From Acidobacteriota bacterium (GTDB lineage: Bacteria; Acidobacteriota; Vicinamibacteria; Vicinamibacterales; CAVVIG01), in assembly GCA_016195265.1 (NCBI GenBank), contig JACPZW010000009.1:1125-65124 (forward strand): a stretch of 64,000 bases of DNA, in the 5' to 3' direction. Each line of letters starts with the position of its first letter. Positions within the stretch are counted from its first letter, which is position 1. This document shows positions 1,421-44,061 of this stretch, in pieces. The notes under the pieces were generated by a model. The model was not told the origin of the DNA and ran no database searches. It was given only the letters and a program-made list of their open reading frames with translations. A program made the translations under genes and the position numbers.

Positions 1421-2917
1421 ATGTCGCAACTCTTCCAGCGGAAACCGATCGCCGCGCTTGTCCCTGCTGGCGACGTCGCCGAGGGCGCGCCAGGGCTGAA
1501 GCGCTCGCTCGGCGCCGGCGATCTGATCATGCTGGCGATCGGCGCCGTGATCGGCGCCGGCATCTTCGGCGCGATCGGCACGGCTGCCGCGGGTCAGCTG
1601 GGGCCCAACGGAGAAGTGATCCGTCAGGGCGCGGGACCGGCGCTGGTATTTTCGTTTCTGCTGCTCGGCGCGGCATGCGCGCTCGCGGGCCTCTGCTACG
1701 CCGAGCTGGCCGCGATGATTCCGCAGGCCGGGAGCGCCTATGCGTACTCGTACGCGACGCTCGGCGAGCTGGTCGCGTGGATCATCGGCTGGGACCTGAT
1801 TCTCGAGTACGCCGTCGGCAACGTCGCCGTCGCGATTTCGTGGGGCGACTACTTCAACACGCTGCTCAGGGGATTCAACGTCTCGCTGCCCGACTGGCTG
1901 ACGACCGGCTATCGCACGGCGCTGCTCAGCTCCGATCCCAAGATTCACGGACTGCTCGCGTCCGCGCCGCACGTCGCGGGCGTGCCGATTCTGGTTCACC
2001 TGCCGGCGGCGGCAATCGTGATGGTGATCACCTGGCTGCTGTCGCGCGGCGCGCGTGAGAGCGCGACGGCCAACAACATCATGGTCGTGATCAAGCTGAT
2101 GGCGCTATCGCTCTTCGTGGTTGTCGGCGCCACGCATCTCAAGAGCGCGAACTACACCCCGTTCGCGCCCAACGGCTTCCGCGGTGTCCATCAGGGCGCG
2201 GCGATCGTGTTCTTCGCCTACATCGGCTTCGACGCGATCTCCACCGCGGCCGAGGAGACGAAGAACCCGCAGCGCAATCTGCCGATCGGCATTCTCGGCG
2301 GTCTCGCGATCTGCACGGCCATTTACGTCATCGTCGGCGGCGTACTGACCGGCATGGTGCCGTACAAGGAGCTCGCGGTCGCCGATCCGCTGGCCCGCGC
2401 GCTCGAGCTGGCCGGCTTCAAGACCGTCGGCTGGATCGTCGCGCTGGGCGCGGCGGTCTCGATGTCCGCGGTGCTGCTGGTTTTCCAGTACGGCCAGCCG
2501 CGCATCTTCTTCGCGATGGCGCGTGACGGCCTGCTCCCGAAATGGGCAGCGAAGCTCCATCCGCGCACGCGCATTCCCTGGGCGACGACGCTCTTCACGG
2601 GCGTGTTCGTGGCAGCGTGGGCCTTGATCGGCGACGCCGGAGAAACCTACGACCTCACGAATATCGGCACGCTGTTCGCGTTCATCCTCGTGAGTATCGG
2701 CGTGCTCGTGCTGCGCTACACCGAACCCGATCGCCCGCGGCCGTTCAAGGTGCCGTTCGTATGGCTGGTCTGCGTGCTGTCTGCGGCCGGATGCCTGTTC
2801 ATCATGTACGGTCTGCCGCAGGCGGCGTGGGAGCGCTTCGGCATCTGGCTCGTGATCGGCCTGCTGCTGTATTTTACCTACGGGTTCACGCACAGCAAGT
2901 TGCGGGTCCGTACGTAG
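1421..2917 (+). CDS. APC-family amino acid permease
   Basis: 498-aa ORF with about 12 hydrophobic segments. The N-terminal LKRSLGAGDLIMLAIGAVIGAGIF motif is typical of the amino acid/polyamine/organocation superfamily. Confidence 0.9.
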   Translation: MSQLFQRKPIAALVPAGDVAEGAPGLKRSLGAGDLIMLAIGAVIGAGIFGAIGTAAAGQLGPNGEVIRQGAGPALVFSFLLLGAACALAGLCYAELAAMIPQAGSAYAYSYATLGELVAWIIGWDLILEYAVGNVAVAISWGDYFNTLLRGFNVSLPDWLTTGYRTALLSSDPKIHGLLASAPHVAGVPILVHLPAAAIVMVITWLLSRGARESATANNIMVVIKLMALSLFVVVGATHLKSANYTPFAPNGFRGVHQGAAIVFFAYIGFDAISTAAEETKNPQRNLPIGILGGLAICTAIYVIVGGVLTGMVPYKELAVADPLARALELAGFKTVGWIVALGAAVSMSAVLLVFQYGQPRIFFAMARDGLLPKWAAKLHPRTRIPWATTLFTGVFVAAWALIGDAGETYDLTNIGTLFAFILVSIGVLVLRYTEPDRPRPFKVPFVWLVCVLSAAGCLFIMYGLPQAAWERFGIWLVIGLLLYFTYGFTHSKLRVRT

Positions 2918-3100
2918 GGCGGGTCCTTTCGGACCCGCTGGTGCGCTCGGTACGTAGGGCGGGTCCTTTCGGACCCGCTGGTGCGCTCGGTGCGTAGGGC
3001 GGGTCCTGTGGACCCGCCTGATCCGCCGGGTCCGAAAGGACCCGGCCTACACAGGTCCAAAAAGGACCCGGCCTACATGGTCCAGAAGGACCCGGCCTGT
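2914..3100. repeat. REP/BIME-like cluster of about six GTAGG-headed GGGTCC...GGACCC hairpin units
   Basis: GTAGG heads sit at 2914, 2954 and 2994, with CCTAC at 3046-3050 and 3072-3076 and a degenerate CCTGT at 3096-3100. There is a 40-nt direct tandem repeat at 2910-2949/2950-2989. The cluster fills the whole intergenic gap. Confidence 0.85.
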
Positions 3101-11341: not shown

Positions 11342-12595
11342 TTGGCACAATCGACCGGCTTCTCCAGACCTTCCCAGGACCTCTTCTGTGACGGCGTGCC
11401 GCTCGCCGCAATCGCCGCGAAAGAGGGCACGCCGGTCTACGTCTACAGCGCGGCGGTCCTCCGCGAGCGCTACCTCGGGATCGATCGCGCGTTTGGCGGA
11501 TACCCGCACGCGCTCCACTATGCGATGAAGGCCAACTCGACGTTGGCTCTCGTGAAAGTTCTGCGGGACGCCGGCAGCGCCGCCGACGCGAACTCCATCT
11601 GGGAGATCGAGGTCGCCCGGCGGGCCGGCTTCGAGCCCGGGCAGATCGTCTTCACGGGCGTCGGCAAGTCGCAGGCCGAGCTCGAGTGCGCCGCCGGCCT
11701 CGGCGTGAAGGCCATCAACGTGGAGTCGGCCGGCGAGCTCGCCCGCGTGGAGGCGATCGCGGCGCGACTTGAAAGAAAGGCGCGCGTGGCGATTCGGGTG
11801 AATCCCGACATCGACGCCCGAAGCCATCCGCACATCTCGACCGGTCTGAAGGTCAACAAGTTCGGCATACCGATCGAAGACGCCCGCGTCCTGTTCGATT
11901 CGTTGCGCACGCGGCCGGCGCTGACGCTCGTCGCGATTCACCTGCACGTCGGATCGCAGATCACGACGATCGTCCCACTGCGTCGCGCTGCCGCGGTCGC
12001 CGCCGATCTCAGCCGCCATTTGATACAGCAGGGGCTGCCGCTCGAATATGTGGACCTCGGCGGCGGCCTGGGCATCTCGTACGACGGAAGCCAGATCGTG
12101 TCGGTGGAGGAGTACGTCGAAGCCCTGGTCGCCGAGACGCGGCGGACATCGCTGCCGATCGTGCTCGAGCCCGGCCGCGCGATCGCCGGACCGGCCGGCG
12201 TGCTCCTGGCGACGGTGATTGACGTCAAGCCGCGCACGGCCGCGAGCGACTTCGCCGTCCTCGACGCGGGGATGACCGAGTTGCTGCGGCCCGCGCTCTA
12301 CGACGCATTCCACCGGATCGAACCCGTGTCCCGCCGCGCGGACGCGGGCGACCGCCAGTACGAATTCGTCGGCCCCGTCTGCGAGAGCAGCGATGTCGTC
12401 GGCCGAGACCGGGAGCTGCCGGCGCTTTCCGTCGGCGACGTGATGGCGATCCGCGACGCCGGCGCGTACGGATCGGCGATGGCGTCCAACTACAATCGGC
12501 GCCCGCTGCCGCCGGAAGTGCTGGTCGACGGCGGCGCGTGGCGCGTGATCCGCCGGCGGCAGACCGTCGACGACATGCTTTCAACGGAGACGTAG
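11342..12595 (+). CDS. lysA: Diaminopimelate decarboxylase
   Basis: Motifs include GTPVYVYS, YAMKANS (the PLP lysine), DLGGGLGI and GPVCESSD. The TTG start is uncertain by a few codons. Confidence 0.92.
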   Translation: MAQSTGFSRPSQDLFCDGVPLAAIAAKEGTPVYVYSAAVLRERYLGIDRAFGGYPHALHYAMKANSTLALVKVLRDAGSAADANSIWEIEVARRAGFEPGQIVFTGVGKSQAELECAAGLGVKAINVESAGELARVEAIAARLERKARVAIRVNPDIDARSHPHISTGLKVNKFGIPIEDARVLFDSLRTRPALTLVAIHLHVGSQITTIVPLRRAAAVAADLSRHLIQQGLPLEYVDLGGGLGISYDGSQIVSVEEYVEALVAETRRTSLPIVLEPGRAIAGPAGVLLATVIDVKPRTAASDFAVLDAGMTELLRPALYDAFHRIEPVSRRADAGDRQYEFVGPVCESSDVVGRDRELPALSVGDVMAIRDAGAYGSAMASNYNRRPLPPEVLVDGGAWRVIRRRQTVDDMLSTET

Positions 12596-12644
12596 GGCGC
12601 GGAGCTTGCTCCGCCCCGAAGGGCCGATCAAGGTCGGCCCCTAC
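12592..12644. repeat. REP-doublet element of the second GTAGG family
   Basis: The element GTAGGGCGCGGAGCTTGCTCCGCCCCGAAGGGCCGATCAAGGTCGGCCCCTAC contains two hairpins. Its GTAG head overlaps the lysA TAG stop codon. A near-identical copy lies in reverse orientation at 43957-44005. Confidence 0.8.
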
Positions 12645-12660
12645 GACCATCACCCTCACT

Positions 12661-13251
12661 ATGGGACACATCATCGCGTTCGAAGGACTCGATCAGAGCG
12701 GCAAGCAGACGCAGGCCGAGCGGCTGCGCGATCACCTCAAGCAGAACGGCGGCAAGGCGCGCCTGGTCTCGTTTCCCGACTACGGCACCTCCATCGGCGA
12801 GGAGATCGCGCGCGCGCTGCAGGGTGAGCGCGACTACGGCCCGGACGTCATGCAACTGCTCTACATCGCGAACCGGTACGAGAAAAAACCCGATCTCAAA
12901 CGCTGGCTCGACGGCGGGCTCGTGCTGCTGTGCGATCGCTACACCGCGTCCAGCGTCGCCTACGGCGAAGCCTTGGGCCTCGATCCGGCGTGGCTGATCG
13001 AGATACAGAAGTTTCTGCCGCCCGCGTCGCTGACGATCCTCCTCGATATCGCGCCGGAGACCGCTGTCGGACGCAAGTCCGTGGACCGTGATCGCTACGA
13101 GCGGGACCGCGCGATGCAGGGCCGCGTGCGCGAGAGCTATCGGCGGCAGGCCGCGGCCGGACAGTGGATCGTGCTCGACGGCGAGCGGTCGAAAGACGAG
13201 ATCGCCGCGGACGTCTTCAGCGCCGTAACGTCACGACTCGCGCGGCCGTAA
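12661..13251 (+). CDS. tmk: dTMP kinase
   Basis: IAFEGLDQSGKQTQ forms the P-loop, and CDRYTASSVAYG is also present. The start is ATG 12661. Confidence 0.93.
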   Translation: MGHIIAFEGLDQSGKQTQAERLRDHLKQNGGKARLVSFPDYGTSIGEEIARALQGERDYGPDVMQLLYIANRYEKKPDLKRWLDGGLVLLCDRYTASSVAYGEALGLDPAWLIEIQKFLPPASLTILLDIAPETAVGRKSVDRDRYERDRAMQGRVRESYRRQAAAGQWIVLDGERSKDEIAADVFSAVTSRLARP

Positions 13252-43306: not shown

Positions 43307-43960
43307 ATGAAGCTCTTCATCGACTCCGGCAACATCAAGGACATCGAGACGCTGACGGCGCTGGGCATCATCGACGGCGTGACGACCAATCCGTCGCTGC
43401 TCGCCAAGGAGCCAGGCGACTATCGCGACAACCTCAAGCGCATTTGCCAGATCGTCAAAGGCCCCGTCAGCGGCGAAGTGACGGCGACCGACTTCGCCGG
43501 CATGCTGCAGCAGGGCCACGACGTCGCGAAGATCGATCCGCACATGGTCGTGAAGGTCCCGCTGACGCGCGAGGGCATCAAGACGTGCACGGCGCTCTCG
43601 GGCGAGGGCATTCGCGTCAATGTGACGCTCTGCTTCTCGGCCGCACAGGCGCTGCTCGCGGCGAAGGCGGGCGCGGCCTACATCAGCCCCTTCGTCGGCC
43701 GGCTCGACGACATCGCCACCAACGGCATGGCCCTGATTCGCGAGATCGTGGACATCTACAACAACTACGACTTCAAGACCGAGATCCTGGTCGCCAGCTG
43801 CCGTCACCCGATTCACGTCGTCGAAGCGGCGCGCATGGGCGCCGACGTCGCGACGTGTCCGCCCGCGGTGATCGATCAGATGTTCAATCACCCGCTGACG
43901 AACATCGGGCTGGAAAAATTCCTGAAGGACTGGGAGAAATCGCAGGCTGTCAAAGCGTAG
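43307..43960 (+). CDS. fsa: Fructose-6-phosphate aldolase / type 3B transaldolase
   Basis: Motifs include [22 protein letters not shown] (the Schiff-base Lys region) and [10 protein letters not shown]. Confidence 0.93.
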
Positions 43961-44005
43961 GGGCCGCCTTGGTCGGCCCGAGGGCGGAGCAAGCTCCGCC
44001 CCTAC
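43957..44005. repeat. REP-doublet element, reverse copy of 12592-12644
   Basis: The element is GTAGGGGCCGCCTTGGTCGGCCCGAGGGCGGAGCAAGCTCCGCCCCTAC. Its GTAG head overlaps the fsa TAG stop codon. Confidence 0.8.
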
Positions 44006-44008
44006 GAG

Positions 44009-44060
44009 CCAGCCACCCATCACTAGCCACCCGTCACCAGCCACCAGTCACCAGCCACCA
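44009..44060. repeat. CCAGCCA-family array running up to the next start codon
   Basis: The sequence is ccagccacccatcactagccacccgtcaccagccaccagtcaccagccacca. Confidence 0.7.
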
Positions 44061-44061
44061 C

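Follow-up and report, generated by a model that had tools for sequence, protein, structure and literature searches.

GTAG-tagged REP doublets on the stop codons of lysA and fsa in an Acidobacteriota genome

Introduction

The lysA gene of an uncultured Acidobacteriota bacterium from soil or groundwater (Vicinamibacterales, assembly GCA_016195265.1) ends in a TAG codon that is also part of a palindromic element of 53 nt (positions 12592–12644), and a related element (43957–44005) does the same for fsa, a transaldolase-family gene. Both are located in the window, i.e. the whole stretch of 64,000 nt analysed here (contig JACPZW010000009.1, positions 1,125 to 65,124 of the forward strand), in which all positions given without a contig label are counted. 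The original prediction, made from the letters of the window, described two-hairpin elements bracketed by GTAGGG...CCCTAC whose GTAG heads double as stop codons, added that a head of another family at 2914 ends a permease gene in the same way, and offered two explanations: either insertion targets TAG stop codons, or insertion replaced the original gene ends. The sequence agrees with the description at all three genes (Table 1). The question raised by this locus is how a palindrome and a stop codon come to share the same three nucleotides.

The elements are doublets of a GTAG-tagged REP family

Each of the two copies contains two unlike hairpins, with the stems GCGGAGC/GCTCCGC and GGGCCGA/TCGGCCC, enclosed by GTAGGG...CCCTAC. 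The copy at lysA reads GTAGGGCGCGGAGCTTGCTCCGCCCCGAAGGGCCGATCAAGGTCGGCCCCTAC on the + strand. The copy at fsa, of 49 nt, is in reverse orientation relative to it, as originally described; the two are only similar, however, and not near-identical as had been claimed, with 47 of 54 columns identical and four indel positions in a global alignment of the first copy with the reverse complement of the second. Folded as single-stranded DNA, each strand of each copy reaches about −19.5 kcal/mol (z −3.1 to −3.5 against shuffled sequences), and in 3 of these 4 folds an outer GTAGGG/CCCTAC stem is formed together with the two inner hairpins.

These elements are doublets of repetitive extragenic palindromic (REP) sequences. 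They belong to a GTAG-tagged family, here called family B, which is one of at least three such families in this genome (G000; 4.54 Mb, 66.8% GC, 87 contigs, about 91% complete). Heads were catalogued on all 87 contigs as matches, with at most 3 edits, to the consensus of families A1, A2, B1, B2, and B3; a broader catalogue of GTAG followed by any 6-bp stem was dropped as too permissive, 17–20% of control tetramers having passed. At least 645 GTAG heads are present genome-wide, 554 of family A and 91 of family B, the latter in three stem variants (48, 25, and 18 heads) with a common GTAGGGG head. The consensus units are GTAGGGGCGGAGCTTGCTCCGCCC, GTAGGGGCCGACCTTGGTCGGCCC, and, for family A, GTAGG[GC]CGGGTCCTTTCGGACCCG[GC]C. 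Both window copies fit them, and a count of the words found behind GTAGG is dominated by a few.

Isolated doublets number 81 in family A and 11 in family B, where single units are frequent. Heads of family A are preceded by a conserved 5-nt extension, G-R-T-A-Y (e.g. GGTAC-GTAGG), even at isolated ends, and those of family B by a C at position −1. An identical flanking 3-mer is found at 3 of the 11 family-B doublets (GAC/GAC at lysA), and the flanking-repeat matches of family A are accounted for by its palindromic flank GTAC. A consistent flanking direct repeat, as a TA or other target-site duplication would leave, was not found at the doublets.

A candidate enzyme is encoded in the same genome. 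The assembly has a single Y1_Tnp gene, for a protein of 158 aa (G000 C37:131631-132107), which is not part of a multi-copy insertion sequence; this gene gives the one match above cut-off to Pfam PF01797 in the whole assembly (34.6 bits, cut-off 23). Its best relative of solved structure is the distant TnpA-REP of E. coli (4ER8, E 8.8e-9, 38.6 bits), to which it aligns with matching H-x-H and Y-I-x-x-N-P-V motifs, DHVHLL standing against EHMHCI and RYILANPVRAGL against DYIYINPVKHGW. Inverted family-A REPs are found on both sides of the gene, and a REP-associated tyrosine transposase (RAYT) gene flanked by inverted REPs is the standard arrangement (PMC2817692, PMC3333891). RAYTs, a class of HUH tyrosine transposases, are known to cleave hairpins of this kind in single-stranded form and to religate them, guided by GTAG. 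Given the shared GTAGG head, one enzyme could serve both families.

A third GTAG-headed word, GTAGGTGACAGG, was also observed at about 37 heads, together with short repeats of GGCAGGT/GGGCGGG and often beside family-B heads (e.g. C21:57042, C34:36725, and C8-type repeats).

GTAG heads coincide with stop codons throughout the genome

A lack of enrichment at stop codons among genome-wide copies would have spoken against the original prediction; the enrichment proves to be very strong. Among 3765 genes called with a codon-usage model of our own making (88.6% coding density), a head supplies the stop codon in 85 of 645 cases, i.e. for 53 of the 554 family-A heads (9.6%) and 32 of the 91 family-B heads (35%). 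Most family-A heads (394/554) are intergenic by these gene calls. Only 18 family-B heads are intergenic, and 41 lie inside called genes. The called genes end in TGA (1964), TAG (1142), or TAA (624), so that about 7% of all TAG stops (85/1142) are REP heads. The overall share of TAG, 30.6%, seems high for a genome of 67% GC.

The register of the overlap is exact. When heads located 0–40 nt past a co-oriented stop are considered, 32 of the 35 of family B are at distance 0 and 3 at 1–40 nt (binomial p 1.5e-48 against a uniform 1/41), and 53 of the 191 of family A are at distance 0 (p 7e-40). Family A shows a second preferred spacing, with 15 heads at 7 nt and 14 at 8 nt against 1–7 at each of the other distances (up to 9 at 40 nt). 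In these 29 cases, the gene has its own stop 3–4 nt before GTAGG, overlapping the extended head (gTGAtatGTAGG, tTAGatatGTAGG). Few genes read on past a head: one in the strict catalogue and, in a looser list, eight (five of family A and three of family B) against 96 heads at stops. Both stops are supplied by REP heads in five convergent gene pairs. The genes concerned are real, because most of those queried have orthologues (31/32 in family B and 40/49 in family A).

These numbers bear on the simplest alternative, in which the hairpins are intrinsic terminators or other host regulatory hairpins that look alike by coincidence, and the TAG overlap is a compositional chance in a GC-rich genome. 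GC-rich hairpins directly behind genes are what it expects, and no Rfam family matched anywhere in the 64-kb window. The T-run of an intrinsic terminator is nevertheless absent after both doublets, which are followed by GACCATCACC and GAGCCAGCCA, and lysA and tmk are tightly packed, forming a conserved pair in relatives that lack the hairpin. Furthermore, near-identical copies sharing a fixed GTAG head run into the hundreds, some of them inside genes, and the repeats lie on either side of a RAYT gene, while the probability that the spike at distance 0 arose by chance is below 1e-39. The alternative is thus contradicted by copy number, RAYT association, and distance statistics, and is extremely improbable.

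Gene ends compared with those of relatives

Among the genomes compared, G001 and G002 are from the same genus, and G003 and G007 are more distant. REP-stop loci are labelled S or A with a number (fsa is S26, the permease gene A38). It should be kept in mind that the relatives are 84–88% identical at best and that orthologous sites were classed as REP-bearing partly by eye.

In 23 relatives of the same family, LysA stops at a common position (...L-E-x-stop) and the synteny with tmk is kept; TAG, TGA, and TAA are all used as its stop. Among the five closest relatives (84–88% identical), the stop is TGA or TAA in 5/5 and TAG in none; it occupies the same codon in G002 and in one metagenome contig, and lies one codon later in the other three. 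The Fsa protein ends in ...AVKA in all three same-genus genomes, the GCG TAG of this genome standing where its relatives have GCG TAA (G001) or GCG TGA (G002). Neither gene was therefore truncated or extended, and TAG most likely replaced a TGA or a TAA. The comparison of C-termini suggested with the original prediction has a different outcome for the permease, which ends in CGT ACG TAG, matching the extended head GTAC-GTAGG, and whose C-terminus (...LRVRT) differs from that of G001 (...LRAQSRTA).

Closer alleles of the two window genes were also sought. The exact Fsa protein was matched by two short Logan contigs only, with DNA identical to the window; no record matched the LysA protein exactly, with either of its possible starts, and a metagenome scan returned nothing closer than 87% identity.

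On a genome-wide scale, G001 and G002 were searched with C-terminal peptides, joined end to end, from the REP-stop genes and from 48 controls that end in a non-REP TAG. The C-terminal length is the same as in G001 for 33/39 controls, 22/40 family-A genes (p 0.007), and 18/31 family-B genes (p 0.017); when the last residue is also required to agree, the counts fall to 26/39, 10/40 (p 0.0003), and 12/31 (p 0.03). Most changes in these 71 REP-stop genes amount to 1–3 codons, in either direction, and a few genes are truncated by 4–10 codons relative to G001 and by up to 17 relative to G002.

Several loci preserve traces of an older gene end. A family-B doublet at G000 C27:34240-34293, with about 62 extra bases, is located where two convergent genes overlap in both G001 and G002. 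Each of its heads ends one gene, so that the two genes are shorter by 4 and 7 codons when compared with G001 and by 5 and 17 when compared with G002, and the old gene ends persist downstream as relics that match at 8/9 (S13) and 7/9 (S12) bases. No cleaner insertion footprint was found than at this locus. At A29 and A20, remains of the native gene end (its last codons and TGA) can be discerned past the REP array, beside the point where homology with G001 resumes, and at S17 the hairpin is followed by GTC TGA, matching the end of the orthologue. In addition, the last codons of family-A cases resemble the flank of the element itself: T at −3 is found in 32% of them against 11% of controls, A at −2 in 52–62% against 34%, and the G-R-T-A-Y extension is still visible within the last two codons of stop-overlapping copies. 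The proposal that original gene ends were replaced is therefore directly supported by the C27 locus, the relics at A20, A29, and S17, the altered last codons, and the family-A extension kept within them, whereas at lysA and fsa any replacement was minimal and left the length unchanged. A single insertion point T^GA within the stop codon, which by eye fits lysA, fsa, S4, and S17, was dropped because the alignments allow other parses.

Was a TAG already there?

The other explanation of the original prediction can be put in a specific form. The head would be host DNA, the hairpin module would insert 3' of a pre-existing (G)TAG, and gene ends would be hit because in-frame TAGs exist only there. 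Such a rule has a parallel in the IS200/IS605 elements, which insert 3' of a fixed tetranucleotide. It also fits a number of observations. Non-REP GTAG occurs 514 times at stops and 1929 times between genes, so that about 21% of insertions would be expected on stops, which is the order observed. The orthologous stop is TAG in 34 of the 71 REP-stop genes, much as in the controls (20/39 in G001), the C-terminal length is unchanged in 40/71, different families occupy the same stops in different genomes, and REP-less orthologues of A14, S11, and S22 read GTAGGGC or GTAGGGCCG at the stop.

This explanation is nevertheless unlikely. The closest relatives have TGA or TAA at both lysA (5/5) and fsa (2/2), and relics of native ends are found downstream of elements. 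The head-like orthologous sites are better regarded as scars of deleted hairpins, a match of 7–9 nt being too long for a bare target. In published RAYT systems, the GTAG belongs to the REP itself and directs the RAYT to cut at a nearby CT or CA dinucleotide (PMC8266576). The intragenic copies point the same way, since native CTAC sites in genes are in the nnC TAC frame in 96% of cases, while 4 of 17 intragenic inverted family-B heads are in the frame CCC TAC; a pre-existing GTAG/CTAC as uniform intragenic target was rejected on this difference. As judged from these comparisons, targeting of pre-existing TAGs by insertion is not supported. The interpretation offered in the original prediction is partly supported, its structural reading being right.

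The TAGs of orthologues can be examined further. Orthologous stops in G001, G002, and G003 hold other GTAG-hairpin families or head-only scars: many of the orthologous TAGs sit in the hairpin of another family, such as GTAGCGCGAGCCTTTCAGGCGAGCG in G001, and others in head-only remnants such as GTAGGGC or GTAGGGCCG. Once orthologues with a REP or a scar are removed, TAG accounts for 28% of stops by our own reading, or 36% by an automatic but leaky classifier, compared with a base value of 30.6% and 49–51% in the controls.

Heads on stops were also noted within the relatives. The abundant GTAGCGCGAGCCTTTCAGGCGAGCG family of G001 also overlaps stops there (loci L099-L178), and its head is sometimes found on the orthologue of a gene that has a family-A head in G000. 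Similarly, lysA of G003 ends in ACG TAG followed by a CCGCGG...CCGCGG hairpin (L019, about 2690-2730), which is another GTAG-hairpin on the same stop.

How head and stop may have come together

The reading favoured here, with moderate confidence, is that the window elements are REP doublets and that the element usually brings the TAG with it, landing on the native stop or a few codons before it. Since the head carries TAG, a copy landing on the native stop or within the last few codons with its TAG in frame would leave the protein unchanged or altered by 1–3 residues (rarely 4–17), and the gene would survive. Three further processes would shape the pattern: copies would land preferentially at the 3' ends of genes, purifying selection would clear those that a ribosome reads through, and heads turned stop codon would be retained longer, their deletion being harmful to the gene. 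The same stop sites would then be re-used by later hairpin families. The in-frame excess, the small number of free family-B copies, the registers, and the re-use of sites together suggest that existing gene ends or REP heads are preferred for landing or replacement, and that stop-supplying copies survive longer.

Several points weigh against this reading. Stop codons turn over fast, only about half of the control TAGs being TAG in G001, so that an ancestral TAG may have existed at lysA or fsa; the more distant G007 and G003 do end lysA with ACG TAG. The orthologous stop is TAG as often in REP-stop genes as in controls, and the drop in the TAG fraction after removal of REP- and scar-bearing orthologues is not significant against the control by Fisher's test. 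Frame-blind insertion followed by selection predicts two read-through copies for each in-frame copy, and 1 was seen against 85, an in-frame excess that selection alone does not readily produce, although about 20 genes tolerate family-B peptides inside. Stop-overlapping copies are slightly but not significantly more diverged than free ones, divergence being taken as a measure of age: in family B, 1.22 against 0.83 edits from the consensus (p 0.15), and in family A, 1.02 against 0.91 (p 0.45). No RAYT gene flanked by family-B REPs was found in the assembly, which is about 91% complete. Finally, no recent empty-site allele was found that would fix the limits of the insertion and of its target at single-base resolution. 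Random insertion combined with tolerance was for its part ruled out as a sufficient cause by the scarcity of read-through and of family-B copies 1–40 nt past stops; frame-blind landing of this kind cannot account for the pattern.

A more specific form of the landing preference is possible, although we advance it tentatively and think it less likely than not to be right. The REP/RAYT system of these Acidobacteria would have a true preference for translation stops, turning gene ends into a safe harbour that repairs itself. The TAG of the head (plus, in family A, G-A or G from the 5' extension) would either be attached to the native T-R-R or take its place, so that insertion regenerates a stop, and the undeletable head would become a long-lived docking point for successive hairpin families. 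This would explain the in-frame excess (85 against 1 read-through), the registers of 0, 7, and 8 nt, the scarcity of free family-B copies, and the presence of different families on the same stops across genera.

A different alternative is that the overlap is an adaptation instead of a by-product of insertion, the hairpins being kept on stops because they protect mRNA 3' ends or tune translation termination through stalling and transfer-messenger RNA (tmRNA). It can draw on the long occupancy of the same stops by hairpins in different genera while their sequence turns over, on the second family-A spacing with the stop 3–4 nt before the head (29 cases), and on published translation effects of stop-proximal REPs: according to work cited in PMC12306157, REPs of E. 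coli cause ribosome stalling and tmRNA action when they lie no more than 15 nt from a stop. The genes concerned are unrelated in function, however (lysA, fsa, the permease gene, glnS, and others), the hairpin is missing at most of these sites in close relatives, neither proposed function needs an exact register of 0 nt, and the same families are found in frame inside genes, where such a function cannot apply. A selected role is accordingly quite improbable as the cause of the overlap.

Relation to known systems

The overlap is a known phenomenon in a new host. GTAG-tagged REPs occur in more than 80 species, and their termini often supply the TAG stop of flanking open reading frames (ORFs), some copies being located within ORFs (PMC3733652). 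That survey found such REPs in Proteobacteria, Cyanobacteria, Chloroflexi, and the Planctomycetes-Verrucomicrobia-Chlamydiae (PVC) group, and its record for Acidobacteria is limited to RAYT-like genes that have long terminal inverted repeats (PMC3733652). The present families share with these elements (Di Nocera, De Gregorio and Rocco 2013, BMC Genomics 14:522, PMC3733652; Nunvar et al. 2010, PMC2817692) an unpaired GTAG 5' of a GC-rich palindrome of 20–26 nt, hundreds of copies (single, in inverted pairs, or clustered), copies in frame within ORFs, termini used as TAG stops, and, for family A, repeats on both sides of a RAYT gene. They differ in the phylum of the host and in the extreme distribution of family B, with 35% of heads on stops, 45% inside genes, and few free. 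The overlap described in 2013 is now quantified, with unusually strong numbers.

The doublets also recall the REP doublets forming hairpins (REPINs) of Bertels and Rainey (2011, PLoS Genet 7:e1002132), in which, as reported in PMC3733652, two inverted REPs with a short spacer form a larger hairpin-capable unit, thought to be the one moved by the RAYT. In the doublets described here, by contrast, the two arms are unlike hairpin variants (stems CGGAGC and CCGACC) with nothing but the GTAGGGG head in common, and the 11 isolated doublets among 91 family-B heads are accompanied by many singlets. The REPs and bacterial interspersed mosaic elements of E. coli with their TnpA-REP (Ton-Hoang et al. 2012, PMC3333891; Messing et al. 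2012, PMC3479197; Corneloup et al. 2021, PMC8266576) offer the closest solved transposase, inverted flanking REPs, and the GTAG head; unlike there, a CT or CA cleavage site is not evident at a fixed place beside the heads in this genome.

Finally, a likeness to the Rickettsia palindromic elements may be mentioned. Those elements are about 100–150 bp long and CGTC-tagged. Family B is likewise found in frame inside many long genes, but it is GTAG-tagged, with 24 nt per unit.

The classification of the window element is unchanged by all this: it is an ordinary REP doublet. For annotation, it means that some gene ends are partly written by a mobile repeat, and that their 3' ends differ from those of relatives accordingly. 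For REP biology, it puts numbers on a remark made in 2013 and bears on how REPs spread and where landing is possible. By analogy with E. coli, the 85 REP-stop genes are candidates for control by a stop-proximal hairpin.

Features of the window and copies inside genes

The features of the window are listed in Table 1. The lysA ORF has the Pfam domains Orn_Arg_deC_N and Orn_DAP_Arg_deC, and the downstream neighbour of the fsa doublet is a carboxyltransferase gene.

Table 1. Coordinates of the REP elements in the window and of the genes that they adjoin

Feature	Position	Strand	Remarks
REP doublet (REPIN-like)	12592–12644	+	forward family-B1-type REP, 3-nt linker, inverted family-B2-type REP; from sequence, fold, and catalogue
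REP unit 1, GTAG head and hairpin GCGGAGC-TT-GCTCCGC	12592–12617	+	one C more than the B1 consensus GTAGGGGCGGAGCTTGCTCCGCCC
REP unit 2, family B2	12621–12644	−	minus strand reads GTAGGGGCCGACCTTGATCGGCCC
lysA stop TAG within GTAG head	12593–12595	+	end position common to 23 relatives
lysA, diaminopimelate decarboxylase	11396–12595	+	start uncertain: 11342 (TTG) or 11396
tmk, thymidylate kinase, downstream neighbour	12661–13251	+	lysA-tmk synteny kept across the family
Second REP doublet	43957–44005	+	opposite order: forward B2-type REP (1-nt stem deletion), then inverted B1-type REP
fsa stop TAG within GTAG head	43958–43960	+	same codon in orthologues: GCG TAA (G001), GCG TGA (G002)
fsa, transaldolase-family gene	43307–43960	+	PF00923
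Family-A REP cluster, 3 forward and 3 inverted units	2914–3100	.	first head (2914–2917) is the permease stop

Besides the copies on stops, family-B REPs lie in frame within about 20 long genes, the longest of 1548 aa, where they are read as short Gly/Pro/Ala-rich peptides, one of them GPTKVGPY. Examples are G000 C19:39654-39708, C48:19098-19159, C85:105546-105596, and C85:121283-121339, with about 18 more. Sense-oriented intragenic heads are in the frame GTA GGG in 16 of 17 cases. At the corresponding positions, G001 and G002 have variable linkers, often with other hairpin families.

The sequence between the fsa doublet and the start of the carboxyltransferase gene (44006–44061) consists of CCAGCCACC / CACCAGTCACCAG repeats in a row. 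This repeat also occurs behind other REPs (C43:23617, C19:12804) and at orthologous sites of G001. In G001, the fsa stop directly joins the TTG start of the next gene (TAATTG), and about 100 bases more are present here.

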